Source: an uncultured bacterium
GTDB lineage: Bacteria; Auribacterota; JACPWU01
Assembly: GCA_964640155.1 (NCBI GenBank)
Contig: CAZXEQ010000001.1
Coordinates: 60,001-92,000, forward strand
DNA length: 32,000 nucleotides
Direction: 5' to 3'
The notes under the pieces were generated by a model. It did not search any database, had not been told where the DNA came from, and saw only the letters and a list, made by a program, of their open reading frames with translations. Within the stretch, counting starts at the first letter, position 1. Every line of letters starts with the position of its first letter. The position numbers and the translations under genes were made by a program. Of this stretch, positions 3,076 through 30,490 are shown piece by piece.

Positions 3076-4401
3076 TTATTTTTTCTTCGATAAAAATTGT
3101 GACAACTGGGGTGTCATTTTTTTAGAAACTTCAACCTCAAGAAAAGTGCCATTCTCATCATATTTTTTAGAAATGACACGCCCATGACGATGTAATAAAG
3201 ACAGCCAATCTCCTTCTTGATGGGGAATGAAAATATGCAGCACCTCTAAATGTTCCTGCAAGTGCTCCTTAATTTTCGCTCTTAATTCTTCTAAACCTTG
3301 TCCAGACTTGGCAGAAGCAAAAATGATTTCAGTCTCATCTTTTAAACAATGAGGAATTGTAGGAGACCCCCCAACTCGATCAACTTTATTTAAAACAAGA
3401 ATATGTTCCACATCTTCTGCATGTAAATCTTTTAAAACTTGAGCTACCACTTCATATTTTTCTTCAACCAAATGATCACTTAAATCCAAAACATGAATCA
3501 AAAGATCCGCATGGGTCACTTCTTGTAATGTTGTTTTGAATGATTCCACCAAATGATGTGGAAGTTTTCGAATAAATCCGACCGTATCGGACAAAAGAAA
3601 TCCTCTACATTCCGGAAATTGAATTTTTCTGACTGTAGAATCTAATGTTGCAAAAAGTCTATCCTCTGCTAAGTTTTCACTCTCAGTCAGACGATTGAAT
3701 AAGGTTGTTTTGCCTGCATTGGTATAACCTACAATGGCCACCAGCGGCCATTCATGGCGTTCTCTATTTTTCTTCTGAACTTTATGTTCGGTTTCGATAT
3801 CACGAAGCTCTTGAGTTAATTTCATAATTCTAGTCCTTAACCGACGTCGATCTACTTCTAATTGTTTCTCTCCAGGACCTCGTGAGCCGATACCTCCATC
3901 TTGTCGAGATAAATGAGTCCATTGATGGGTAAGACGAGGCAACAAATACTTTAACTGGGCAAGTTCTACTTGAAGCTGAGATTGTTTAGTGAATGCTCTG
4001 CGGGCAAAAATATCTAAAATGAGTTGAGTGCGATCAATGACACGCACTTTAAAATTTTCATTTAAATTTCTAGACTGGACTGGGCTTAAATCATCATCAA
4101 AAATAACAACTTGTACTTCGCTTTCTTGCGCCTTTGCTGCAAGTTCCTCCAGCTTTCCCTTGCCAATAAAAGTAGCCGGATGGGGTTTTGTCAGTTTAAC
4201 AATGGTTTGATGAGTGACTTTTGCTTTTGCAGTTGAAACAAGCTGAGCCAACTCTTCTAAAGAATTCTCAACATCCCACGCTCTTGACCGTCCCCAATCG
4301 ACACCAATTAAAAAAGCTTTTTCGGGTCCTTGAATCACATGTTTAAGCGGCAAGGCAAACTCCTGACAGGAACGAAGACAGTCATCAGTGATAAGTCGCA
4401 A
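3076..4401 (-). CDS. hflX: GTPase HflX
   Basis: Contains the HflX N-domain (GKGKLEEL, LILDIFARRA, QVELAQLKYLLPRL), a G1 box GYTNAGKTTLFN, DTVGF and NKVD. The maximal ORF begins with TTG at 4401. A better-supported start is the TTG at 4353, which is preceded by AGGAG (4360-4364) with a 6-nt spacer. Confidence 0.9.
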   Translation of the reverse strand: MRLITDDCLRSCQEFALPLKHVIQGPEKAFLIGVDWGRSRAWDVENSLEELAQLVSTAKAKVTHQTIVKLTKPHPATFIGKGKLEELAAKAQESEVQVVIFDDDLSPVQSRNLNENFKVRVIDRTQLILDIFARRAFTKQSQLQVELAQLKYLLPRLTHQWTHLSRQDGGIGSRGPGEKQLEVDRRRLRTRIMKLTQELRDIETEHKVQKKNRERHEWPLVAIVGYTNAGKTTLFNRLTESENLAEDRLFATLDSTVRKIQFPECRGFLLSDTVGFIRKLPHHLVESFKTTLQEVTHADLLIHVLDLSDHLVEEKYEVVAQVLKDLHAEDVEHILVLNKVDRVGGSPTIPHCLKDETEIIFASAKSGQGLEELRAKIKEHLQEHLEVLHIFIPHQEGDWLSLLHRHGRVISKKYDENGTFLEVEVSKKMTPQLSQFLSKKK

Positions 4402-20086: not shown

Positions 20087-20296
20087 ATGAAACCTTGCTG
20101 CGGAAAAGAAATCAAACGTTCTATCAAGAAACATCGGGATGTAGCTACCTGCGATCAATGTAAGTCCCTCATTTTGGCTTACGGAGATGAAGCAGACTTT
20201 CAAAAAATGCTTCAGGGATTGGAAAAAAGCAAAATCTCTTTTGAAACTGGAGTTTCTGGCAAGTTAAAAATTGTTATCAAGCATTTAGTTAAATAA
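20087..20296 (+). CDS. Small hypothetical protein (69 aa) with CC...CxxC cysteines
   Basis: The ORF starts 6 nt after the AKR stop. Cys residues lie at positions 4, 5, 22 and 25 (CDQC), so metal binding is possible. No strong SD and no family recognised. Confidence 0.45.
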   Translation: MKPCCGKEIKRSIKKHRDVATCDQCKSLILAYGDEADFQKMLQGLEKSKISFETGVSGKLKIVIKHLVK

Positions 20297-20307
20297 ACAA
20301 AAATGAA

Positions 20308-23300
20308 TCAAGCTGCAGCATTAAAAGACTCCGATCTTTCTACAATCACTTGTTTTCTTTGAACATTGGGCAACTCTCTCAGCGACTTTTGCCCTCTATC
20401 AATCTGTCTTTTCCTTGAACGTCGTATTTGTGTACCAACAGCTTCTTCTCTTTCTCCCAATTCACGAGCAATACGATTGACCCATCCTTGAAAAATCTCC
20501 TCTTCGAAAGGTTTTTCCTCTTCACTCATTTGATCGAGGCTCTCAGCAATTCTCATAATCGCTAATTCTAATTTTCCTTCTCGGAAAAGTTTTTCCACTT
20601 CGGCTTCTAAAGTCACTGTTGCTAAATCCTGTTGCTGTTGCCTTTGTCTTAGTGCTACCAAGCCAAAAACAATGGTTAAAGCTGGAGGTAGAATCATTCT
20701 TCTTGGCGCACCGCTATCAGACACTGTAAGACGAATATCTGGCGCATTATAATACCTGGTTCCGATTGAGTTATCTCCTGTAGAAGAAGCCTCTACGGCT
20801 CCTGGAACAGAAGGCAAAGCTAAAAGCCCTATCACTCTTTCATAAAGACTACCTGTCCATCGTCGGACCTCTAAGACTTCACCCCTCTCATCCCTAACAT
20901 TTGGATGTAGAGAAATAGCATCTCTTAAGGCCACCAATGCTATTAAAAAATCTCTTCGAACAATCACCTGATTCCCTGATAACTGTACATCCTCTAAATC
21001 CAGACTGTCAGAGAAAACCAAGCGTCCCTCACGATAAAGGGTCAATATTTGAGTTTTTCTTTCAGGGGAAAGATAACGCCCCCAAAATTCTATTAAATAA
21101 TGATCTACAACATCGATATGAGAAGGTTCTGAAGCCTGATACTCAGAACTAGAAATATAAAAATCGCCGGCTCTCCAATGTGCAATTCGCTGCTGACGCG
21201 CAACATCAGCCACCCCTTGCAACCTCTCTCTTGTAATGATGTCTGATGACAATTGAATAAATCTTAAAATTTCATAAGGTTTTAAAGCCAAATAATTTGC
21301 AACTTGTACTCTTTGTTCTATTTGTTCATACGTTTCTTGGAATGTTGAGTTAGATGGAAAAGTACATTGCCCAAACAAAAGCCTAATAGGCTCTAAAAGT
21401 ACATTTAACTCTCTTTGCGTTCTGTCTCTAACCTTTTGTATTTGATCTGCAGGTAAGTCCTGTCCCAAATCCAAAAAGGTTCTCTCCTCTTCAATAACCT
21501 GTCTTGCAGTTTGAAGCAAAGCTGTAAAAACACGTTCAATCGGTCGATGACCCAAGACCTCTTGTTGACCACTATTTTGATCGAAAGGAGCTCTTTCGGA
21601 ATAAATCCTTTGAAGATTCATTCTCGAAAAAGCTATTTCAGGAGTGATAAGCTCACTTACATCTCCTTTCCCCCTAACAAAACTAGCTTCGGAAACAATC
21701 ATTTCACTCAGAGCAATCATAATATCTGTTTCACCAATGCCCATTTGACGTAACGCTTGAAGATAATTTTCTGTATCAAAACCCTGAGCAGGAATAATCT
21801 CTAAAGCAATCGGCATAAGGATTGCTAGAAGCTCAGCTCTTGTTTCCAGAAAATCCTGCCAATGCAAAATGAGATAAATAGAAAACACCCGAAAAGCGTT
21901 TTCTTGACCCAAAATCTGACGGATTTCTTGAGGTGTTTTTTCTCCCAAATCTCCAAAAACTTGGTCAAAAACATAATTTCTAAAATGAAAAGAACCATAC
22001 AAACTTGCAGAAACAAAAATTTGAAGCTTAAGGTTCACCGATAAACTTGGAAAAATTTCTTGAATGATTCTTTCCAATCTTTCTCTTGTTGCTGCATCTA
22101 AAGAAAGGTTTAGAGCCTGCGATATTAATGAAATATAAAAAGCCTTTTCATTATCACTAAGACTACCTCTTCGAATAGACACTTCTGCCTCCGTTAAGAT
22201 TTGAGTAACAGCTTCTTGTGATGCAAACCCTCCTAATCCCATAGCTAGATTTAAAAGATTTTGAGCAGCTGAGCGATAATAACTATCGTGATAGCTCACG
22301 GGTGTATACGGAATATCTATATTGCAAAGTCGAACGGGATGATACCGACGTTGATAACGCTGAAAAAGAGCTCTTATTTGTGTTAAATCTCCAGAGGCAA
22401 TCACTCTGCGGGCATGAAACAGCTCAATATTACTCAAACCTGTCGAGATCTCACCGAATTCACGCATCACTGTCTGAGGGTCGTCAGAACGAGCAGCCCA
22501 TATACCCGGCAAAGTTATTTGTCTTACAGGATGATTCTGTAAATATTCTAAAAATCTTTCCCCCACTTCATAAAAATTGTCACTGGGGATAGCGGCTTGA
22601 TGATATAGTCCAAACACTTTTAAAAGAAAATCCAATTCAGAAGAAGCCCCATGATCCCTTAATTCCTGATCAATATTTCTAAAATCAGGGTCCATTGCTA
22701 AAATATCCTCAGCAATCATCACCGATAGAACTGGGATCAGCACGCTTTCAACAGCATCAACTACTCCTGCCCTGTAAAAAAAATTTTGATAAAAAGCCAA
22801 TGCCTCTATAATATTTTGAGGTCTTAGATTTCTGCGCTCTTCTCGAACGAGATCTACCACAAAAGACCGTGCAGCTACTTTAGCTTCTTCTGAAATCGGA
22901 GCTCTATTTACCTCAAATAAAAAACTCTGAAAACGACTCATTTGAACTCTTAAATTATCCCCTTGTCCAGAATCTGTTCGTCGAGACATAGACAGAAAAA
23001 TCCTTCGAGTATCATCAAAATATCTCTGCCGTTTTTGAGGATCCGCCAAAAGCCTCATAGGTAACCGCATCAAATCACCTTCAAGACTATCCCTTCGCAT
23101 CACTGCAAGAAGCCGCTCTTGAATAGGAATATCAGTTAATGGACCATTCACTTGTTGTTGAATCACTTGAACACGTGGCCTTCCCATCAAAGGGCGAACA
23201 TGTTGATTCATAAATAAAACCCAAGGGTCGTTGGTCGTAACCACTCCATTCAATTGAAGATAATTGAGAAAACTTCCATTGAATCCAATAATGCTTTGTC

Positions 23301-26300
23301 GTGGTTCATCTGGTGTATATCCACGGTCTGGAGTGAAGGATGGGTTACGACGATGCCATTCCTGCGCAATCACTTCATTACTTCCCCAAATTAAAAGCCC
23401 TAAACCTTGTCGGAGTTGTTCTGCATGAGGTGAGGCTGGAACACGAGCAGGATCCGCAAAAACATAATACCAATCATCAGGATACTGAGCTTGCAATCGA
23501 ATAAGTTCTTGAAAAAAATAGCGCTGCCGAGAAAAAAAATTTAAGAAGCTGCCCATCATCCGAAGCTCCTCCGAAGTAAAAGAAGATAAATCTCCAAAAT
23601 GAAGCGGAGCATAAATGTTATTTAAATATTCTGCCGTAATTATTGCTGGAGTAGGATCATAATTACCTCCATACCCTCCTCTGGATCTCGCCCTAGCTAC
23701 CTGTGCTTGATATTGAGCTTGAGGACTATCTTCTCTTCTCCAGCGATCTTCTATCCCCTCTAGTTGAATCCACAAAGTAGACCTTTGAACAGGTGTCAAT
23801 CCTTGTGAAAATTGATCAAATGCCGTGTTTGCAATTTCTTGGTTTAAACCCCAGCGTCTGCTTTCTCGAATCAAATAAGCTCTAAACGCATCTCCATTTC
23901 CAACATCCACGACTTTTCCATCCGCAAGCTTTTGAGCTGCCATCAAAGCCACACGTCCAAACAAGTCATGAATCATTCTTTCATTTTCTTCTCCCAAAGC
24001 GCCAATATCAGTTAAAAGACCTAAAGCAACATCATTGACCATTTGAAACATATCCTCTATAAGTCGAAAATCAATGGTTCTATCTACATTTTCATAAGCT
24101 CCCACAGCTCTTGAAGCAATTTCCAGTTTCTGAGATATATAAATATCTGTTCTTCTCAACAAAGTCCTCAAAGAATAGATTTGCCTTAAATCTTCTGGAT
24201 AATCTGAATCTGAATAAAGAGGGGCTTGGTTAGAAGATTCATTCGATTGCCCTGCTGTTCTATCTGGCCTGGCGGCTTGGTCTCTTTCGTGATGTTGTCG
24301 AATTACACTTTCCTGAAAAACTTGTAAGCGTCGATCTCCTTGTCGAACAAATGTGGTAGGATCCCTGTTCACCCATCCGCGCCCTCCTCTAGGATTCATG
24401 GTTTGACAAATAGCATGAAGCTCTGAAATATCAATCCAGCGACTGCTATTCACATCAATTGCCCCATGAACAAGTCGGGCTGGAATTCCTACATATCTTA
24501 AAAGAAGCATTTCATACATCGCTAAAACAGCACAAGCAGCTTTGATCTTCTTCCTGCGCCTAAAAGATTCTTCTTCAAACCCATGATCCAACCAATGTTC
24601 AGGAGGAACTGCAAACATTCGTGCAGCATCTTCATCCAACCCATATTCAAATCGATCTTGCATAATTTGCTCTACACCTGTGAGTCGAAGGTCATAATCG
24701 TCCAACATTCTCAAAGCATCGAGCCGAGCTCTTAAGGTCGGAGGAATGTTTCTTTCACTCTCAGGAAGTTGTGTATAGTGGGCTATAAATTCTGATGAAG
24801 GGGTAAAAGGTACCGGTTGAAACTCATCGAGATGATAAGAAACAATATTATATCCTACGGGAAGATGAAAACCTTGTAAACGCAAAGTAGCATCTCCGTA
24901 AGAATTTGGCACGAGATTAAATCCTTCTGTTCGACCATTGACACGAATACTTGAAGGGTCAACACGAGAATGAGATGTTCTAAAAAGGCTTATTTCTGAG
25001 CCCTGAAAATACATAGTCACTGTCACTCCCTCACCCATTCTTGTTTCAGATAAGGGAGCATCTGGGAAATCAAGTACTTCCTGAACAACTGCTCCATTAG
25101 AATGAACACTCGAATAAGTCCCCAAAGAATAAAATCCTCCGCCTCGACTCAATTGAGCCAACCAGACGCCTCTCTCACGCAAACGTCCATTTTCAAAAGC
25201 ACTGTCCGGTTCTGACAATGTATTAGGTCTAAATTCTCTCATTCCAGAAAGCGTTTGAAGATAACGCGCCCCTCTTTCCACATTATGAAAAAATAAAGAA
25301 GCTCTTCTAGAAACTCCAGCCATCATCTCTAATCTTCTAAAACCTCTCACAAAAGAAGGAACCCAAAAAAGTGTTTGGGCTGGAACTGTTTCTACGGTTT
25401 GACGAAGACGAACGCTTGACTGAGCAACAGATGCAGCTTGATCTCTGATCACATGAACAATGGTTTCAGAATGAAGTCCAAAACTTGAAAATACGATATA
25501 TAAAACAATCCCCCATCTTAATATCCTAAAAATAAGCCTTTCTTTTAAAGAAGTTAAAAAGCTAACCCAAGGTCTGGCTACAGTTGTTTTAGATTCTTTA
25601 ATTTCAAATTTTTCTAAGATTGCTTTTTCTTCAGTCTGTACAGGAGGCGCTTTTAAGGTTTCCAATGTCTTTTGACTTTGATCTAACAGAACTTTGTGAA
25701 TTTTGGTTTCAAGATCTTCTAATTCTCCAATAACATCTCTTGATCGGTAAGATTCTAATCTTTCAATTTTCTTCTTTCTTTGATTCATTTGTCCTACTTT
25801 TTCTTTCAATTGATCTAGCTCTTCTGCCAACCTTCTTTCCTCCAAAGCATCACGCTCAATTGAAAAAGAATTGCTTCTAATTTTTTCAAGTAGGTTTTTT
25901 TTCAGTTCTTCTGCGCTTCCTTCACCCTCAATTAATCCTTCTGCATTTTCTTCAATTCCAATCAACCTTTGATATTTCTGATGTAATTGAACATTTTCTC
26001 TTTCCTTACGAGCAATATCCACCCGTATCTTTTCTAAATCCCCCTCTAGTTTTTTTTGCTTCAATAACAGGTCTTCGACTCTTGCCTCTCCGAATATATT
26101 TTGCAGCTCTTCTTTTAATCGAATTATTTCTCCTTCAAAACGCCAAGGAGGTGCATCTCTTGGCGTTTGAGTCATGGTAACTTCTGAAGTAGGAAGCAGA
26201 CTTTGAATATGTTCAGTCCTTCGATAGATTCGATCATTTCGAAGCGTTCCTTTCTCCTTCTCTCTCAAACGTAATTCCAGTACATCTGCGAGAAAAATTC

Positions 26301-29300
26301 CTGCTTCCTTTTGAGTTTCAGGATTTAAAGTTGGGAAAATCTCTACTAATTCTTGAGCAATTAAAATTAAAGGAACAACTTCAACCTCACCATTTTCATA
26401 AATACGCTGCATATCATATCCATTCACAACAACTCTTATGAGTGGAGATTCTTTTTGAGAATCAATAATTTTAAGTCCCTTGGCCAAAAGCTTTCTTAAA
26501 CTAAACGTAAGAAGCGAATCCTCAACTTGTTTTGATTGAGTCTTTTCTTCAAATGCAATTCCATGTTCTTGAGGTCCCGTTCGAAGAAGAGCTATCAGAA
26601 ACTCTAGAGTCTGTTCTTCCAAAGTTTCTCCCTGTACATCCTTTCGAGACAGGCCAAATGTTTTTTCTCCAGAAACGTTTTTGGGAAAAGCAAATTGAAG
26701 AAAATTTTTCAAATCAAGAGGAACGGTATAAATCTCATAAATAGAAGAGCTTTTTTTTCCTTCAGCAATATCATAAGCCTCTTGAATGGTTCTTTCCGCT
26801 TGATGATAGCGAGAACGCCCCTTAATAACATGCCGACTTCCTAGCGAAATAAATTCAAATACAACTCCGGGAAAATCATTTGTTATTCGAATATCTATAG
26901 ATTCTATACCTGCAACACTGATCTGATAGTGGATCAAGAAATAAGCCAGACGCAAGGACTGTAAATATTGATCCAAAGCCTGAATCTTTTTGAACAGGTC
27001 ATTTTTAGTCTTATCATTCGCGCTTATTGACAAATTCTGAAGTTTTTTTCGAATTATTAAGATTTTTAAGATTTCAGAAGGATAATCAATATTCTGAGCA
27101 GTTAAACTTCTGGCCCCCTCTTTTAGAAAAATAGAATCAACACCTATTTCATCTAATGAAATTTTTTCTTTCGTGGCACTTTTATACGAAATTAATAAAT
27201 TCTCTGAAGAACTCTGTCCGTCTTCAGAATCATCATCTAAAACAACTCTTTCTCGAAGAAAAACAGCCTCAGTCGATTTTAGATTTGACGACTTGCCTCT
27301 GACAACTTGAGCTACCTGCCCCTTCTGATTTCGTTTCAAGAAAAAAATATTCTTTCCCTCCCATACATCTAAAGGATTTCGTGAAATCTTCGGACTGACA
27401 ATCACAGCGGGGGAAAACAGATTATAGGAGGCTAAAAATGATACCAACTGTTCTTCTTGAGCTGTCAGCGCGCTTAAACTTTCAAAAGGATTTAAGGATA
27501 TTTCTGTTTGATCCTCAGAAATAGGCACAGATAATGTTTTTTCCTCTTCTATTTCTAAAGCTCTTTGTCTTCTTAGATTTTTAAATTTTACAAAGAGAGT
27601 TTTTCCTGTTTTTTTAAGAGTTGACCCAACCCATTTAAAAATAACAAAAACATTAAATAGAACAAAGGGAGCAATCAATAAAGTTAAAAAAGGCAAACCT
27701 AAATAGATAGAAAGAAGAGAAGCAGCATTTAAAACAATATAAAAATCTACAGCAAAACCAACCATCTTTTGTACTTTTTTAGGCAATTTTCGATAAAGGG
27801 GTGTTAAAAAAAATTCAGAAGCAATTCCCAGAAGAACAAGGGTTAATGCAGCACTCATTGTAAAATGAGCTCCGATGAGGCAAATAAAAACAACAAAAGG
27901 AAGAACAAGATAATACAAAAGCGTTTGGCTAACTCTACCTAAAATATGAAAGGCTCGACGCAAAAATCCTTTTTTTACCTCTTCCTTCTCAGTCTTCTTA
28001 AAATACCACCGACCAAATTTGACAATACCTGACTCTTCACCCCAGCGTCTGGCCACAGCTGCCACAACTAAACGCCCTGCTGTTTTCATATTTGGATTAA
28101 ATCGATCCCATTGCAAGGTGCAGTTTTTATGTTTAGAAATGACTTCCACCAAAATTCTTCCTTCTTTATCATCTAAATCTCTTAGTATATCCCTATGTTT
28201 CTTAAACCATCGATTGACGATTTGATGTACTGTTTTTTGATCGGCCTTACTTAAAACATCGATCAATTCTTTAAGCAATGGCTTTAATATATGCCCTTCA
28301 TCCAATTCCAACTGCTCATGAATTTCTCGCTCCATCGCACTCACTGGAGAAAGCATTTTTTTGATAGGATCAGAACTCGGTCGTAGCAAAAGTCTATCTT
28401 TGGAGAACTCTTCCCCATGAATCTCATCCCATTGTGTTTTCATCACAAAGTCGTAACGTTTAAATCCCAACTCCCCACGAATTTCAGGCGTACAAGCAAT
28501 ATAAGAAATCTTTTTCTTCTCCAAAATTTTCTGAATACCCTCGGTATGAAAACCTCCGGTGATCAACACAGTCACCGGTCCCCTGTCTCCAGTCTCCAGC
28601 AAATCACTATTTTGGGTTTTCTGACTAGGAACTCGCGACTGACGACTGGTGACCATTAACGCTTTTTCAGCCATCACTTCATCACGTTTCAGAGCAAACT
28701 CATAAAATTTTAGAGCTTCTCTCATGCAATCATCAAATTGATGAATTATTTGAGAATTCTCTAGATTTAAATCTTGTACATTATATTTTTGAGATAAAGC
28801 CTGCATCGTTATTGCTCTTGATTGCGTATTTTTAAATCCTTTTAATCCAGTTGTTTCTAACTCTCTTCGCGTCAACTCCAAACGAATTAATTTCTTAAAA
28901 ATCTTCCATGTTTCATCAAAATCAGCAATGTCTTCTACTTTCTCCAATCTTGCCTGTTCATAAAGAAATCCTTGAACAAAAGATATTAATTCATTCCACA
29001 AAACATCAAAATCAAACTTCTTCTCTTTTTGGCTAATGCTAAGCCACGTTTGTAATTGAGGATATTCCTTCTGGAATAAATCTTTTTGAACACTATTTTC
29101 TTTTTCATAATTCTGTTTTAATTGAGCCAAGTATTCATCTGCCTTAATATGACCTAATCGATATTCCAATGTTATTTTCACAATTTCTTTGAATGCATTA
29201 GGCGATAATCTTGTCTGAAGATCTTTGATAAGTTGATCTAATTGTGTTTGTGCCTCCTTAGAATCAAATGCATTGGTTTCCTGAAAAAAAGTCAGAAAAT

Positions 29301-30048
29301 CTTTCAAACTCGAGGTTTTAGCTAAAAGATGGGGGTGAGATTTAAAAATAAATTCTAATTCTTTCACCCATTCTTGCCATTTCGGAGAGTTTGAGTGTAA
29401 AGATTTGGAAAACTGATCTATTCTTTTTAAATCACTTGAGTAAGCTTTGTCTTTCAAACTCTGAAGCCAAGCATCAATCGCTGACACACCTTCTTTTAAA
29501 CTCTCTGCATATTTTCGACAAAGATGAAACGCTTTAAAATTTTCAGAATAAAGATGGGGCTCCTCAACTCCATAAAGAGAAGTTTCGTTTTTAAGTCCCA
29601 TCACAATCTTAGAAAACTCTGCTCCTGTAAGAAGCCCTTGCCTAAGAAATTTTCGTGCTACTTGCGTCCTCGCGTCTTTATCTGGGAAAATTTCATAAAG
29701 AAGAGTTTGTACGGGTCCAGATGCCCCCTCCACTAAAACCTGATCAAGTAAATTCTCACGGGCAAGCTGCTCTAATGTAATTGCAATCCTCTCCTGAGCC
29801 TGTGCCTGACAATGAATATCTCTGATAAGGACCCAAAGTACAGGCCCTTTCCCATTAAAAACCTTATTGATTTTCATACCTCTCAAAGCAAGAGAATCAG
29901 GCGAAATCTCTGCTATTGGAACAATACGAATCTGGGCAGATGGAATTAGATCTGCTTTCGCATGGGAAAACGACTCAAGATTCAAAGAATCTAGACCGAT
30001 GAAACACGAGAGGACTATGGCTATTAATTTGACAATGATTTTTCTCAA
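20308..30048 (-). CDS. Giant (3,246 aa) multi-pass membrane protein with a transglutaminase-like Cys-His-Asp core; most of its length matches no family I recognise
   Basis: A single 9,741-nt ORF with a TTG start at 30048. The N-terminus MRKIIVKLIAIVLSCFIGLDSLNLESFSHAKA looks like a signal peptide. Hydrophobic blocks lie at aa 709-808, 1505-1525 and 3118-3133. A coiled coil spans aa ~1309-1485. The TGase-like signature is at aa 1839-1898. The antisense ORFs in the track are short and unsupported. Confidence 0.85.
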   Translation of the reverse strand: MRKIIVKLIAIVLSCFIGLDSLNLESFSHAKADLIPSAQIRIVPIAEISPDSLALRGMKINKVFNGKGPVLWVLIRDIHCQAQAQERIAITLEQLARENLLDQVLVEGASGPVQTLLYEIFPDKDARTQVARKFLRQGLLTGAEFSKIVMGLKNETSLYGVEEPHLYSENFKAFHLCRKYAESLKEGVSAIDAWLQSLKDKAYSSDLKRIDQFSKSLHSNSPKWQEWVKELEFIFKSHPHLLAKTSSLKDFLTFFQETNAFDSKEAQTQLDQLIKDLQTRLSPNAFKEIVKITLEYRLGHIKADEYLAQLKQNYEKENSVQKDLFQKEYPQLQTWLSISQKEKKFDFDVLWNELISFVQGFLYEQARLEKVEDIADFDETWKIFKKLIRLELTRRELETTGLKGFKNTQSRAITMQALSQKYNVQDLNLENSQIIHQFDDCMREALKFYEFALKRDEVMAEKALMVTSRQSRVPSQKTQNSDLLETGDRGPVTVLITGGFHTEGIQKILEKKKISYIACTPEIRGELGFKRYDFVMKTQWDEIHGEEFSKDRLLLRPSSDPIKKMLSPVSAMEREIHEQLELDEGHILKPLLKELIDVLSKADQKTVHQIVNRWFKKHRDILRDLDDKEGRILVEVISKHKNCTLQWDRFNPNMKTAGRLVVAAVARRWGEESGIVKFGRWYFKKTEKEEVKKGFLRRAFHILGRVSQTLLYYLVLPFVVFICLIGAHFTMSAALTLVLLGIASEFFLTPLYRKLPKKVQKMVGFAVDFYIVLNAASLLSIYLGLPFLTLLIAPFVLFNVFVIFKWVGSTLKKTGKTLFVKFKNLRRQRALEIEEEKTLSVPISEDQTEISLNPFESLSALTAQEEQLVSFLASYNLFSPAVIVSPKISRNPLDVWEGKNIFFLKRNQKGQVAQVVRGKSSNLKSTEAVFLRERVVLDDDSEDGQSSSENLLISYKSATKEKISLDEIGVDSIFLKEGARSLTAQNIDYPSEILKILIIRKKLQNLSISANDKTKNDLFKKIQALDQYLQSLRLAYFLIHYQISVAGIESIDIRITNDFPGVVFEFISLGSRHVIKGRSRYHQAERTIQEAYDIAEGKKSSSIYEIYTVPLDLKNFLQFAFPKNVSGEKTFGLSRKDVQGETLEEQTLEFLIALLRTGPQEHGIAFEEKTQSKQVEDSLLTFSLRKLLAKGLKIIDSQKESPLIRVVVNGYDMQRIYENGEVEVVPLILIAQELVEIFPTLNPETQKEAGIFLADVLELRLREKEKGTLRNDRIYRRTEHIQSLLPTSEVTMTQTPRDAPPWRFEGEIIRLKEELQNIFGEARVEDLLLKQKKLEGDLEKIRVDIARKERENVQLHQKYQRLIGIEENAEGLIEGEGSAEELKKNLLEKIRSNSFSIERDALEERRLAEELDQLKEKVGQMNQRKKKIERLESYRSRDVIGELEDLETKIHKVLLDQSQKTLETLKAPPVQTEEKAILEKFEIKESKTTVARPWVSFLTSLKERLIFRILRWGIVLYIVFSSFGLHSETIVHVIRDQAASVAQSSVRLRQTVETVPAQTLFWVPSFVRGFRRLEMMAGVSRRASLFFHNVERGARYLQTLSGMREFRPNTLSEPDSAFENGRLRERGVWLAQLSRGGGFYSLGTYSSVHSNGAVVQEVLDFPDAPLSETRMGEGVTVTMYFQGSEISLFRTSHSRVDPSSIRVNGRTEGFNLVPNSYGDATLRLQGFHLPVGYNIVSYHLDEFQPVPFTPSSEFIAHYTQLPESERNIPPTLRARLDALRMLDDYDLRLTGVEQIMQDRFEYGLDEDAARMFAVPPEHWLDHGFEEESFRRRKKIKAACAVLAMYEMLLLRYVGIPARLVHGAIDVNSSRWIDISELHAICQTMNPRGGRGWVNRDPTTFVRQGDRRLQVFQESVIRQHHERDQAARPDRTAGQSNESSNQAPLYSDSDYPEDLRQIYSLRTLLRRTDIYISQKLEIASRAVGAYENVDRTIDFRLIEDMFQMVNDVALGLLTDIGALGEENERMIHDLFGRVALMAAQKLADGKVVDVGNGDAFRAYLIRESRRWGLNQEIANTAFDQFSQGLTPVQRSTLWIQLEGIEDRWRREDSPQAQYQAQVARARSRGGYGGNYDPTPAIITAEYLNNIYAPLHFGDLSSFTSEELRMMGSFLNFFSRQRYFFQELIRLQAQYPDDWYYVFADPARVPASPHAEQLRQGLGLLIWGSNEVIAQEWHRRNPSFTPDRGYTPDEPRQSIIGFNGSFLNYLQLNGVVTTNDPWVLFMNQHVRPLMGRPRVQVIQQQVNGPLTDIPIQERLLAVMRRDSLEGDLMRLPMRLLADPQKRQRYFDDTRRIFLSMSRRTDSGQGDNLRVQMSRFQSFLFEVNRAPISEEAKVAARSFVVDLVREERRNLRPQNIIEALAFYQNFFYRAGVVDAVESVLIPVLSVMIAEDILAMDPDFRNIDQELRDHGASSELDFLLKVFGLYHQAAIPSDNFYEVGERFLEYLQNHPVRQITLPGIWAARSDDPQTVMREFGEISTGLSNIELFHARRVIASGDLTQIRALFQRYQRRYHPVRLCNIDIPYTPVSYHDSYYRSAAQNLLNLAMGLGGFASQEAVTQILTEAEVSIRRGSLSDNEKAFYISLISQALNLSLDAATRERLERIIQEIFPSLSVNLKLQIFVSASLYGSFHFRNYVFDQVFGDLGEKTPQEIRQILGQENAFRVFSIYLILHWQDFLETRAELLAILMPIALEIIPAQGFDTENYLQALRQMGIGETDIMIALSEMIVSEASFVRGKGDVSELITPEIAFSRMNLQRIYSERAPFDQNSGQQEVLGHRPIERVFTALLQTARQVIEEERTFLDLGQDLPADQIQKVRDRTQRELNVLLEPIRLLFGQCTFPSNSTFQETYEQIEQRVQVANYLALKPYEILRFIQLSSDIITRERLQGVADVARQQRIAHWRAGDFYISSSEYQASEPSHIDVVDHYLIEFWGRYLSPERKTQILTLYREGRLVFSDSLDLEDVQLSGNQVIVRRDFLIALVALRDAISLHPNVRDERGEVLEVRRWTGSLYERVIGLLALPSVPGAVEASSTGDNSIGTRYYNAPDIRLTVSDSGAPRRMILPPALTIVFGLVALRQRQQQQDLATVTLEAEVEKLFREGKLELAIMRIAESLDQMSEEEKPFEEEIFQGWVNRIARELGEREEAVGTQIRRSRKRQIDRGQKSLRELPNVQRKQVIVERSESFNAAA
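20650..20697 (-). other. C-terminal hydrophobic helix (aa 3118-3133) followed by a 113-aa charged tail
   Basis: MILPPALTIVFGLVAL followed by RQRQQQQ. It is short for a TM helix (16 aa), so this call is borderline. Confidence 0.45.
24350..25070 (-). other. Transglutaminase-like (papain-fold) domain with a Cys1839-His1878-Asp1896 triad
   Basis: KAACAVLAMYEMLLLRYVGIPARLVHG (Cys codon 24532-24534). SELHAICQT (His codon 24415-24417). GRGWVNRDPTT (Asp codon 24361-24363). This matches the canonical G-x-C-x-x-f-A...lR-x-x-GIPAR-x-V-x-G...HAW...GW-x-x-x-DPT pattern. A beta-rich region precedes it (VTVTMYFQGSEISLF...ATLRLQG). Confidence 0.75.
25474..25536 (-). other. Single TM helix (aa 1505-1525) separating the two compositional halves of the giant protein
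   Basis: LIFRILRWGIVLYIVFSSFGL. The N-flank is basic (LKERLIFRILR), suggesting an N-in/C-out orientation. Confidence 0.6.
25595..26125 (-). other. Coiled-coil segment (aa ~1309-1485) of the giant protein
   Basis: Heptad-like, E/K/L/Q-rich sequence: LKEELQNIFGEARVEDLLLKQKKLEGDLEKIRVDIARKERENVQLHQKYQRL ... LDQLKEKVGQMNQRKKKIERLESY ... EDLETKIHKVLLDQSQKTLETLK. Confidence 0.6.
27625..27924 (-). other. Two bilobed hydrophobic blocks (about 4 TM helices), aa 709-808 of the giant protein
   Basis: Block 1 is TLLYYLVLPFVVFICLIGAHFTMSAALTLVLLGIASEFFLTPLY. The basic loop RKLPKKVQK follows. Block 2 is MVGFAVDFYIVLNAASLLSIYLGLPFLTLLIAPFVLFNVFVIFKWV. Both outer flanks are strongly basic. Confidence 0.7.
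29953..30048 (-). other. Signal-peptide-like N-terminus of the giant protein
   Basis: It shows the three signal-peptide regions: n-region MRKIIVK, h-region LIAIVLSCFIGL, and a c-region ending AKA-D (AxA-like). Confidence 0.55.
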
Positions 30049-30111
30049 TTTTATCTCACATATAGAGTTAAGACATGCAAAAGAGATAAATAAACAACTG
30101 CCTTATGCAGT

Positions 30112-30140
30112 AAGATACCATAGAATCGCTCTTTTGTCAA
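30112..30140 (-). promoter_or_regulatory. Possible promoter of the giant gene
   Basis: On the minus strand: TTGACA (30135-30140), a 17-nt spacer ending TGg (extended -10), then TATCTT (30112-30117). This predicts a ~55-nt 5' UTR. Confidence 0.35.
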
Positions 30141-30205
30141 TAATAGCAATATTTTTGTATTATACACGAAATAAAGTACTTATGACACAAATATGTCAAC
30201 TTGTT

Positions 30206-30233
30206 TTGAAAAATAATCTAAATGTGCTATACT
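30206..30233 (+). promoter_or_regulatory. Possible promoter of the 78-aa ORF
   Basis: TTGAAA (30206-30211), a 16-nt spacer ending TGc (extended -10), then TATACT (30228-30233). GAGGTG follows, 8 nt upstream of the ATG at 30254. Confidence 0.4.
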
Positions 30234-30253
30234 TAATTTGAGGTGTCTCTTAT

Positions 30254-30490
30254 ATGACAATACGAGTGAGAGAAGAAAACCATGAAGTAAAGCATGTCTT
30301 GATCGAATTATCAGAAGCGGTTAGTACATTTTCCGTCGAGGTCGAACCAGGACTTATCTATCATTACGACGAACAGCTGAACCCTACACAAATTGAGGTT
30401 AAAGATACAGCTCTAATTGAACCTTTTCTTAAAGGTTTACAGGAAGTTCTTAAAGATCCAAACGTCAAAATCATTCGTAAAGCTGCTTAA
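30254..30490 (+). CDS. DUF2283-like small protein (78 aa)
   Basis: Strong SD (GAGGTG). The pattern VLIELSEAVSTFSVEVEPGLIYHYDEQLNPTQIEV resembles the DUF2283 consensus (ALYIxLSxxxxxxSEEVxPGVIxDYDExGxxxGIEI). Confidence 0.55.
   Translation: MTIRVREENHEVKHVLIELSEAVSTFSVEVEPGLIYHYDEQLNPTQIEVKDTALIEPFLKGLQEVLKDPNVKIIRKAA

Follow-up and report, generated by a model that had tools for sequence, protein, structure and literature searches.

The window analysed here, a 32,000-nucleotide stretch from an uncultured bacterium of the Auribacterota (assembly GCA_964640155.1, contig CAZXEQ010000001.1, positions 60,001 to 92,000), carries one uninterrupted 9.7-kb open reading frame (ORF) at 20308..30048 (-), which starts with TTG and encodes a giant protein of 3,246 amino acids (aa) plus the stop codon. 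At slightly better than even odds (a probability of about 0.55) we read this protein as a polytopic envelope protein with two enzyme-like modules, one of them free of lysine and set apart across the membrane from the lysine-rich segments next to it. Module 1 (aa 1-810) would consist of a signal-peptide-like N-terminus and a hydrolase-like head followed by membrane helices. Module 2 (aa 1503-3152) would be a helix-bracketed, lysine-free segment with a Cys-His-Asp core, specific to a small orthologous group. The multi-compartment layout, already suggested in the initial annotation, is supported independently, because the proportion of lysine changes abruptly at the positions of two conserved hydrophobic helices. 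We infer both enzymatic activities, the membrane side of each module and the reason for the lysine avoidance.

The protein was compared with two orthologues, each from another sample. The first, P0002, is an intact, collinear protein of 3,696 aa with 40% identity over 65% of the query. The second, L003, lies on a contig of a Candidatus Auribacterota metagenome-assembled genome and was the sole relative obtained from the genome-collection scan. Its ORF is open to the contig end, collinear as well, and shows 65% identity in aa 1-813 and 33% in aa 1164-2149. No further orthologues were found in the metagenome-contig scans.

The lysine desert spans aa 1503-3152 (20593..25542 (-)) and contains only 16 lysines among the 1,587 residues that separate the two helices, with lysine-less runs of 330, 293, 157 and 154 aa. 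A lysine desert is operationally defined as a run of at least 150 aa without lysine (PMC10665810), and each of these four runs is of that kind. Lysine makes up 1.0% and arginine 9.9% of the segment and K/(K+R) ranges from 0.00 to 0.18, whereas up to residue 1502 lysine amounts to 6-11% and K/(K+R) to 0.4-0.8, with an average of 0.58 in the neighbouring genes. Measured against the 7.8% lysine of these neighbours, 16 lysines in 1,587 aa correspond to a binomial P of ~6e-36. The region had been described initially as R/Q-rich; lysine-depleted is the better description.

Both edges of the desert coincide with hydrophobic helices. The last lysine before it is K1502, directly ahead of the transmembrane helix aa 1505-1523 (25480..25536 (-); hydropathy 1.74), and the first one after it is K3153, behind the short hydrophobic helix aa 3118-3133 (20650..20697 (-)) with the motif RMILPPALTIVFGLVA. 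The first helix, annotated initially as aa 1505-1525, passes the Kyte-Doolittle scan together with aa 1-24 and 705-810, and its hydrophobic segment is conserved in the orthologues. The second had also been listed in the initial annotation; it stays below the scan threshold, although its motif is conserved in P0002 and our own count gives a Kyte-Doolittle mean of 2.4 over the 16 residues. The same lysine switch is present in P0002 and L003. Another hydrophobic stretch at aa 2427-2453 was rejected as a membrane helix, as it contains D/E residues and the lysine desert continues on both sides.

The GC content at third codon positions (GC3) is equal inside and outside the desert, and therefore the desert is not an effect of DNA composition. 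Overall GC is 0.40 in the desert versus 0.36 outside, a difference which, given the identical GC3 of 0.27 in both gene halves, follows from the amino-acid content. The substitutions between the query and P0002 point in the same direction for the protein itself. Within the desert 72 arginine sites are kept and 76 are changed, and only three of the 76 (4%) became lysine, with glutamine as the commonest replacement (21 sites). Outside the desert, in contrast, lysine is the commonest replacement of arginine (14/49, 29%). Only two desert lysines, K1974 and K2040, are conserved in all three orthologous proteins. Judged from these sequences, the desert is actively maintained by selection against lysine.

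The desert surrounds a transglutaminase-like (papain-fold) core at aa 1836-1897 (24358..24543 (-)), with a match to PF01841 and the predicted triad C1839, H1878 and D1896. The triad is invariant in all three orthologous proteins and lies in the motifs C-x-V-L-A, SE-x-H and W-x-x-x-D-x-TT. The initial annotation had named a single core of this type. The query itself reaches only 20.4 bits against a Pfam cut-off of 23, while P0002 (26.7 bits) and L003 (28.9 bits) both pass. In addition, the core is located in the best-conserved block of the body, aa 1600-2000, with 45-61% identity. The earlier description of a giant membrane-embedded protein with an enzyme core is supported. The helices 1505-1523 and 3118-3133 flank the core, as in TgpA-type proteins. 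DUF3488 and DUF4129 gave no match in the query at E<=1, and neither aa 1531-2300 nor the whole protein had a significant match among PDB sequences. The body as such (aa 560-3246) aligns with the two orthologues alone.

The N-terminal head domain and its family

A conserved head domain, a candidate TIKI/TraB/ChaN-type hydrolase, occupies aa 66-548 (28405..29853 (-)). What had been taken for a K-rich helical region of ~680 aa is instead a conserved enzyme-like alpha/beta domain that carries a helical insert of ~300 aa. No model for this domain is present in Pfam or NCBIfam. In a search with the whole protein all 50 non-orthologous matches were giants of 1.8-5.3 thousand aa (kaa), which aligned only at query residues ~60-530. 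Their named sources are Omnitrophota, Elusimicrobia/Endomicrobia and Candidatus Theseobacter exili, the last being an Auribacterota species (PMC9324843). When a 21-sequence profile of the head was searched against 1.84 billion cluster representatives (50% identity), 9,913 representatives were obtained at E<=1e-3 and 6,946 at E<=1e-30. The family is therefore not as unrecognised as first assumed: the head at aa ~66-548 belongs to these 9,913 clusters, while the 2,700-aa body with its two orthologues is still a near-orphan.

Among the 150 matches listed the domain starts at residues 29-211 and is N-terminal in each; these proteins are mostly 1.5-5.5 kaa long (range 1-5.5 kaa). For 191 representatives the median start is residue 71. 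A hydrophobic segment precedes the head in 168 of the 186 representatives that begin with Met, and the family N-termini inspected have typical signal-peptide features. A strong hydrophobic helix within 400 aa past the head was seen in only 24/191. The bodies of the relatives contain enzymes of central carbon metabolism (PGK, FBPase, PGM/PMM, aldolase, PGI, GAPDH, TIM) and of glycogen and sugar metabolism (glycogen synthase and phosphorylase, UDP-glucose dehydrogenase, ROK kinase), besides PPDK, histidine-kinase ATPase and sigma-70 region 4. The head defines a very large family of giants with variable bodies, often sugar-metabolism enzymes.

Lysine-poor stretches of at least 300 aa are rare in this family (7/191 members). 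Stretches of 300-900 aa were noted in P0142 (aa 690-1601), P0046, P0018, P0021 and P0045. In many giants of this family a typical signal peptide stands ahead of ATP-/NAD-dependent enzymes of cytoplasmic type (PGK, GAPDH, PGM, glycogen synthase), and apart from the signal there is no strong hydrophobic helix close to the head. Signal peptides ahead of such enzymes have been noted for larger giants by West-Roberts et al. and Nielsen & Lui (bioRxiv 10.1101/2023.11.21.568195; 10.64898/2026.06.07.730766). A second head-domain member of 1,064 aa is located ~2 kb from the giant gene on L002, the contig that carries the P0002 locus (23423-26617 (+); E 1.5e-114 to the head profile). A lysine desert is lacking in this protein, which yields the best PF04187 score among the scanned proteins (24.9 bits); at this position the window has gltX.

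An AlphaFold2 model of the head, built on the 21-sequence alignment, reached a predicted local distance difference test (pLDDT) value of 84.9 and a predicted template modelling score (pTM) of 0.79. In the model the core strands (model residues 12-18, 42-47, 98-102, 433-439 and 456-460) form beta-alpha-beta units, and the insert of ~300 aa (model residues 105-412) is all-helical. The invariant residues of the family are located at or just past the C-terminal ends of the core strands. These are, in query numbering, D77-x-H79, Q85, E107-G108, E144, G160-x-E162, R455-D456 and G498-G499-F500-H501, each conserved in 168-191 of the 191 sequences (88-100%); for the main positions the counts are 186 for D77, 190 for H79, 191 for E107, 189 for R455 and 191 for H501. 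Weak matches to PF23202 (PAH_ZNF598, a paired-amphipathic-helix domain) occur in the insert of 11/21 aligned members, at query aa ~270-320 and equivalent positions, and one protein, P0114, passes the cut-off (27.7 bits vs 25). As these are short helical matches we rejected them as functional.

The TIKI signature of RRSP consists of 2His/2Glu plus Arg, namely E3900-x-H3902, E3930, R4001 and H4030 (PMC6254334). The query contains this constellation in the same order (D77-x-H79, E107, R455, H501), with E107 at His+28 as in RRSP and with Asp instead of Glu as the first acid. PF04187 (ChaN, TIKI superfamily) matches weakly in eight of 32 family proteins, the best at E 2.3e-5 with 24.9 bits against a cut-off of 27.7, and the three matches with a reported position cover profile positions 159-204 at the GGFH motif. 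After deletion of the insert, the head core was aligned with six TraB/PrgY proteins from enterococcal plasmids using hhalign (E 7e-4, probability 26%, 157 collinear columns). The alignment pairs H79, E107, R455-D456 and G498..H501 of the query with the TraB invariants H21, E45, R191-D192 and G212..H215 and places the GAEF motif (E144) opposite the stretch around TraB E101.

On this basis the head, with its ~300-aa helical insert, is probably a divergent hydrolase of the TIKI/TraB/PrgY/ChaN superfamily that would cleave peptide or ester bonds. We do not go further than probable because the motif evidence is strong but the statistics are sub-threshold. Several results weigh against the assignment: PDB sequence searches with the head profile and with the insert-deleted core profile gave nothing significant, PF04187 stayed below the gathering score in every member scanned, and the hhalign probability to TraB/PrgY is low. 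Foldseek with the head model against the PDB returned long-helix noise only (best E 0.13). If the assignment is correct, it would provide a testable, unifying idea for ~10,000 clusters of giants with a shared head that neither Pfam nor NCBIfam models, as the head might process, anchor or activate the variable enzyme bodies. It also bears on the puzzle of glycolytic-type enzymes in proteins that begin with signal peptides.

Topology, proposed mechanism and competing explanations

The N-terminus (aa 1-30, 29959..30048 (-)) resembles a signal peptide, with MRKIIVK, a 12-residue hydrophobic core and SHA|KA. It is conserved in both orthologues, in agreement with the Sec-type signal proposed initially. 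A lipoprotein signal was rejected: the sequence VLSC would make C15 a lipobox cysteine, but P0002 lacks this Cys. A head-membrane linker (aa 549-700, 27949..28404 (-)) with a K/R-rich end leads to two hydrophobic blocks of ~45 aa at aa 705-810 (27619..27936 (-)). These blocks, which the initial annotation had also recognised, pass the Kyte-Doolittle scan, are conserved in P0002 and L003, and would form 2-4 membrane helices with strongly K/R-rich flanks. The linker is conserved among the orthologues as well (identity in aa 501-700 is 62-71% to P0002 and 65-87% to L003), and the proteins P0003 and P0004 align to the query up to aa 663 and 626, respectively.

Since membrane helices stand at both of its edges, the desert should be on one side of the membrane and aa 813-1500 and the tail on the other. 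In our own count of K/R in the helix flanks 17 are on the side of the head, aa 813-1500 and the tail versus four on the side of the desert, and therefore the lysine-rich parts would be cytoplasmic and the desert outside, like in TgpA. In enzymes of the transglutaminase fold the epsilon-amine of lysine serves as acyl acceptor, or else the enzyme works as a thiol protease or a deamidase. In the proposed mechanism the membrane would keep the lysine-free module apart from the lysine-rich neighbouring segments, and the thiol enzyme would perform lysine-directed acyl transfer or cleavage, through which envelope proteins or peptidoglycan would be cross-linked, deamidated or proteolysed. Selection would have removed the lysines within reach of the enzyme, so that the giant body is not its own substrate; with lysine purged from the compartment of the active site, the 1,600-aa tethered body would be neither self-cross-linked nor self-cleaved. 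The head may add a second activity, peptide or ester hydrolysis or processing. As the desert ends at membrane helices on both sides and is held by selection, the sequence by itself predicts where one compartment gives way to another, and it hints at lysine-directed chemistry of the core embedded in it; if confirmed, lysine deserts could mark self-protection in cross-linking or Lys-specific enzymes generally.

Several observations weigh against this reading. The PF01841 score of the query itself is under the Pfam cut-off, and an AlphaFold2 prediction of aa 1560-2100 from a 2-sequence alignment reached a pLDDT of only 41.7, so that the fold of the core is predicted from sequence alone. In addition, the signal-peptide-like N-terminus would export the head, which conflicts with the positive-inside count. 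An odd number of crossings in the blocks at aa 705-810 would reconcile both orientation signals. However, the lysine-rich head and the lysine-free module would then share a compartment, which weakens the simple self-protection argument: if the head (10% lysine) and the desert are both periplasmic, self-protection fails to explain a loss of lysine in the desert alone.

A broader version of the envelope-protein reading is more speculative and we hold it only tentatively, as the odds are rather against it. Here the head would define an undescribed superfamily of signal-led "enzyme-carrier" giants, with ~10,000 clusters in Omnitrophota, Elusimicrobia and Auribacterota, in which a catalytically intact TIKI/TraB-like hydrolase is permanently coupled to interchangeable enzyme bodies. 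The present member would be a new kind of envelope machine, whose transglutaminase-type cross-linker or protease sits across the membrane in a lysine-purged body of 1,600 aa and so escapes its own chemistry. If true, a transglutaminase-like enzyme, and not ubiquitin or Pup, would for the first time account for a lysine desert.

Among the other explanations, export of the body as a cargo or effector survives best, though we think it unlikely. The head would then be a trafficking or self-processing module, comparable to polymorphic or MARTX toxins, the body would be delivered to the surface, a partner or prey, and the desert would guard the delivered part from ubiquitin-/Pup-like tagging or degradation. 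A conserved N-terminal head with highly variable bodies would fit this, as would family N-termini that resemble cleavable signal peptides and the scarcity of strong hydrophobic helices shortly past the head (24/191 members). The TIKI-fold protease RRSP is one of the effector domains in a giant MARTX toxin (PMC6254334), lysine deserts are known as protection from ubiquitylation and pupylation (PMC10665810), and the Omnitrophota giants have been proposed to act on prey or hosts. However, the desert of the query has a conserved helix at either edge, and a conserved tail that contains lysine comes after it, which suggests retention in the membrane rather than release. Moreover, the window has no secretion-system, immunity or chaperone genes, the bodies of the relatives are housekeeping-type sugar-metabolism enzymes and not toxins, and host association is not known for this lineage.

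Distinctly less probable is a membrane-tethered scaffold without lysine-directed chemistry, the bulk of which would be cytoplasmic, with a structural or degenerate core and a composition left over from its history, e.g., from a body acquired from a high-GC donor. The sub-threshold PF01841 score, the failure to find body homologues beyond the three orthologous proteins, the positive-inside count, which favours cytoplasmic flanks, and the slightly higher GC of the desert would agree with it. Yet GC3 is the same in both halves and the GC difference follows the amino-acid content, and the arginine sites of the desert turn over freely but hardly ever to lysine (3/76, compared to 14/49 outside), despite an AT-rich genome that favours lysine. 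The invariant triad, the position of the core in the best-conserved part of the body and a switch in composition within a few residues of the helices also speak against the scaffold.

The gene and its surroundings

The uninterrupted ORF described initially was recovered at the same coordinates. An assembly from Logan (L001, SRR8893623) has 0 mismatches to the window across 14,693 bp, although the same reads may underlie both. Conserved motifs extend along the full length of the ORF in both orthologues. The TTG at 30048 is the first start codon downstream of an in-frame TAA at 30105 and is backed by the N-terminal conservation in P0002 and L003. Upstream of this start codon lie two matches to sigma-70-like promoters (30112..30188 (-)), each with 10/12 positions; they are only suggestive, since their count is not above the shuffled expectation. 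The public gene call P0001 (3,225 aa) begins at codon 22, a Leu codon in the window, and drops the signal-peptide-like N-terminus (29985-30048 (-)). This is an annotation error, with a start placed 21 codons too far downstream and the signal sequence lost.

The neighbours within the window are all housekeeping genes, namely ispD, ispF, an aldo-keto reductase, gltX, cysS, tmk, holB, a PSP1-domain gene, metG and tatD, as well as a ROK kinase, transaldolase, epimerase, an LptD-like gene, UDP-glucose dehydrogenase, hflX, phoH, ybeY and dgkA. The initial annotation was therefore right about the housekeeping surroundings and the lack of secretion or chaperone genes nearby, but the giant gene has not been inserted among them. 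The order ispD-ispF-78-aa ORF-giant-69/70-aa ORF-...-aldo-keto reductase recurs at L002, with flanking proteins 65-82% identical, and the GC of the ORF is like that of its flanks. This synteny and the equal GC3 argue against a recent insertion or foreign DNA, and the idea was rejected.

Collinear orthologues, one of them syntenic, the lack of repeats and a GC3 like the surroundings therefore indicate an old resident gene and neither an insertion nor an artefact. The giant ORF is a genuine, vertically inherited gene. With 40% identity, compared to 65-82% for the flanking proteins, the giant gene evolves faster than its neighbours. That it is an assembly chimera, a pseudogene or a spurious ORF has next to no probability: the sequence is metagenome-derived, the two identical assemblies may have reads in common and the start codon is TTG, but 9.7 kb are open in a genome of 37% GC, the locus is syntenic, and intact collinear orthologues with motifs conserved over the whole length exist in two other samples.

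On either side of the giant gene lies a small ORF. The first, of 78 aa (30254-30490 (+)), is divergent and upstream, has no Pfam match and is 82% identical to its counterpart at the same position in L002. The second, a Cys-rich ORF of 69 aa (20087-20296 (+)), is convergent and downstream, 71% identical at the same L002 position and also without a Pfam match. Both are far more conserved than the giant protein (40%), and they may be functionally linked to the giant gene. A third ORF of 124 aa with a TTG start (29867-30241 (+)) runs antisense across the 5' end of the giant gene; it is without a Pfam match and most likely spurious. At L002 a HepT/MNT-type toxin-antitoxin pair (21376-22204; PF01934, with PF01909 and PF18765) is located between the giant gene and the aldo-keto reductase; the window lacks this pair.

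The remaining parts of the protein follow largely the initial description. The ~500-aa region without motifs corresponds to aa 811-1300 (26149..27618 (-)), which has no recognisable domain and evolves fast, with 20-32% identity to P0002 and 26-98% gaps relative to L003, where it is largely absent. It is followed by a charged helical region at aa 1301-1500 (25549..26148 (-); E 17.5%, K 11.5%). For the coiled coil of ~175 aa proposed initially, the E/K/R-rich helical stretch is present and a coiled coil is possible, but a crude heptad score flags aa 1384-1418 alone. Together, aa 811-1500 are the least conserved part of the body and are partly missing in L003. The charged tail of 113 aa (aa 3134-3246, 20311..20649 (-)), in which lysine returns, aligns with the tail of P0002.

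As noted before, the protein is not a repeat adhesin, and neither is it an NRPS, an RTX or a defence protein. Self-BLAST and Tandem Repeats Finder detected no tandem or internal repeats, and Ig, cadherin, RTX or haemagglutinin repeats and the A/C/KS domains of NRPS/PKS were absent in Pfam, NCBIfam and repeat scans. No RTX, Ig, NRPS or defence families were matched with Pfam, NCBIfam and PADLOC.

Comparison with known systems

The metazoan TIKI proteins consist of a signal, a TIKI-like domain and a membrane anchor, and the giant resembles them in this layout, with the signal peptide ahead of the domain. PrgY carries a TIKI-type domain followed by membrane helices; with PrgY/TraB the query shares the collinear alignment and, as in PrgY, the membrane helices after the domain. 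In general, the head has the order acid-x-His, Glu +28, Arg and G-x-x-His in common with the TIKI/TraB-PrgY-GumN/ChaN/erythromycin-esterase proteins (PF01963, PF04187; RRSP). Unlike in this superfamily, its core is interrupted by ~300 aa of purely helical insert, the first acid is Asp and not Glu, the profile scores of the query family are under the family thresholds, and the head leads proteins of thousands of residues and not of ~250-400 aa.

TgpA (PA2873) of Pseudomonas aeruginosa has a periplasmic domain between membrane helices, for which transglutaminase activity was demonstrated in vitro (PMC3507681). Both proteins have a Cys-His-Asp transglutaminase-like core within a large segment bracketed by membrane helices. 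However, the N-terminal helices of TgpA, a protein of 688 aa, make up DUF3488, for which the giant protein has no match, whereas the bracketed segment of the giant comprises ~1,600 aa, is nearly lysine-free and is about five times larger in scale. Outside this segment the giant protein shows no relation to TgpA.

According to Szulc et al. (2023, PMC10665810), lysine deserts protect proteins from tagging at lysine, by ubiquitylation or pupylation. As in these cases, the runs in the query are at least 150 aa long, are compensated by Arg and are conserved in orthologues. The described deserts are linked to ubiquitin or Pup in cytosolic proteins, whereas the desert of the query is delimited by membrane helices, surrounds a transglutaminase-like core and occurs in a lineage without known pupylation.

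Giant signal-peptide/transmembrane multi-enzyme proteins of Omnitrophota were described as "Archaeovorins" (West-Roberts et al., 2023, bioRxiv 10.1101/2023.11.21.568195) and as "multi-enzyme metabolic clusters" (Nielsen & Lui, 2026, 10.64898/2026.06.07.730766), and the head-domain family overlaps with them. Both groups come from related uncultured phyla, and the head-domain relatives carry the same enzymes, PGM/PMM, glycogen synthase, ROK and aldolase. In difference to these giants of at least 10 or at least 30 kaa, the head-domain family is mostly 1-5.5 kaa, and the query has 3,246 aa, one weak enzyme match in Pfam and no metabolic enzyme domain. Term searches found transglutaminase in neither report, and lysine, TIKI and PF04187, searched for in that of Nielsen & Lui, did not occur there. 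New relative to the searched literature are the conserved catalytic-type head, shared by ~10,000 clusters, and a lysine desert that membrane helices delimit, selection maintains and a transglutaminase-like core occupies. The giant protein is related to the TIKI/TraB hydrolases, the TgpA-type transglutaminases and the Omnitrophota giants, and is a plain member of none of them.

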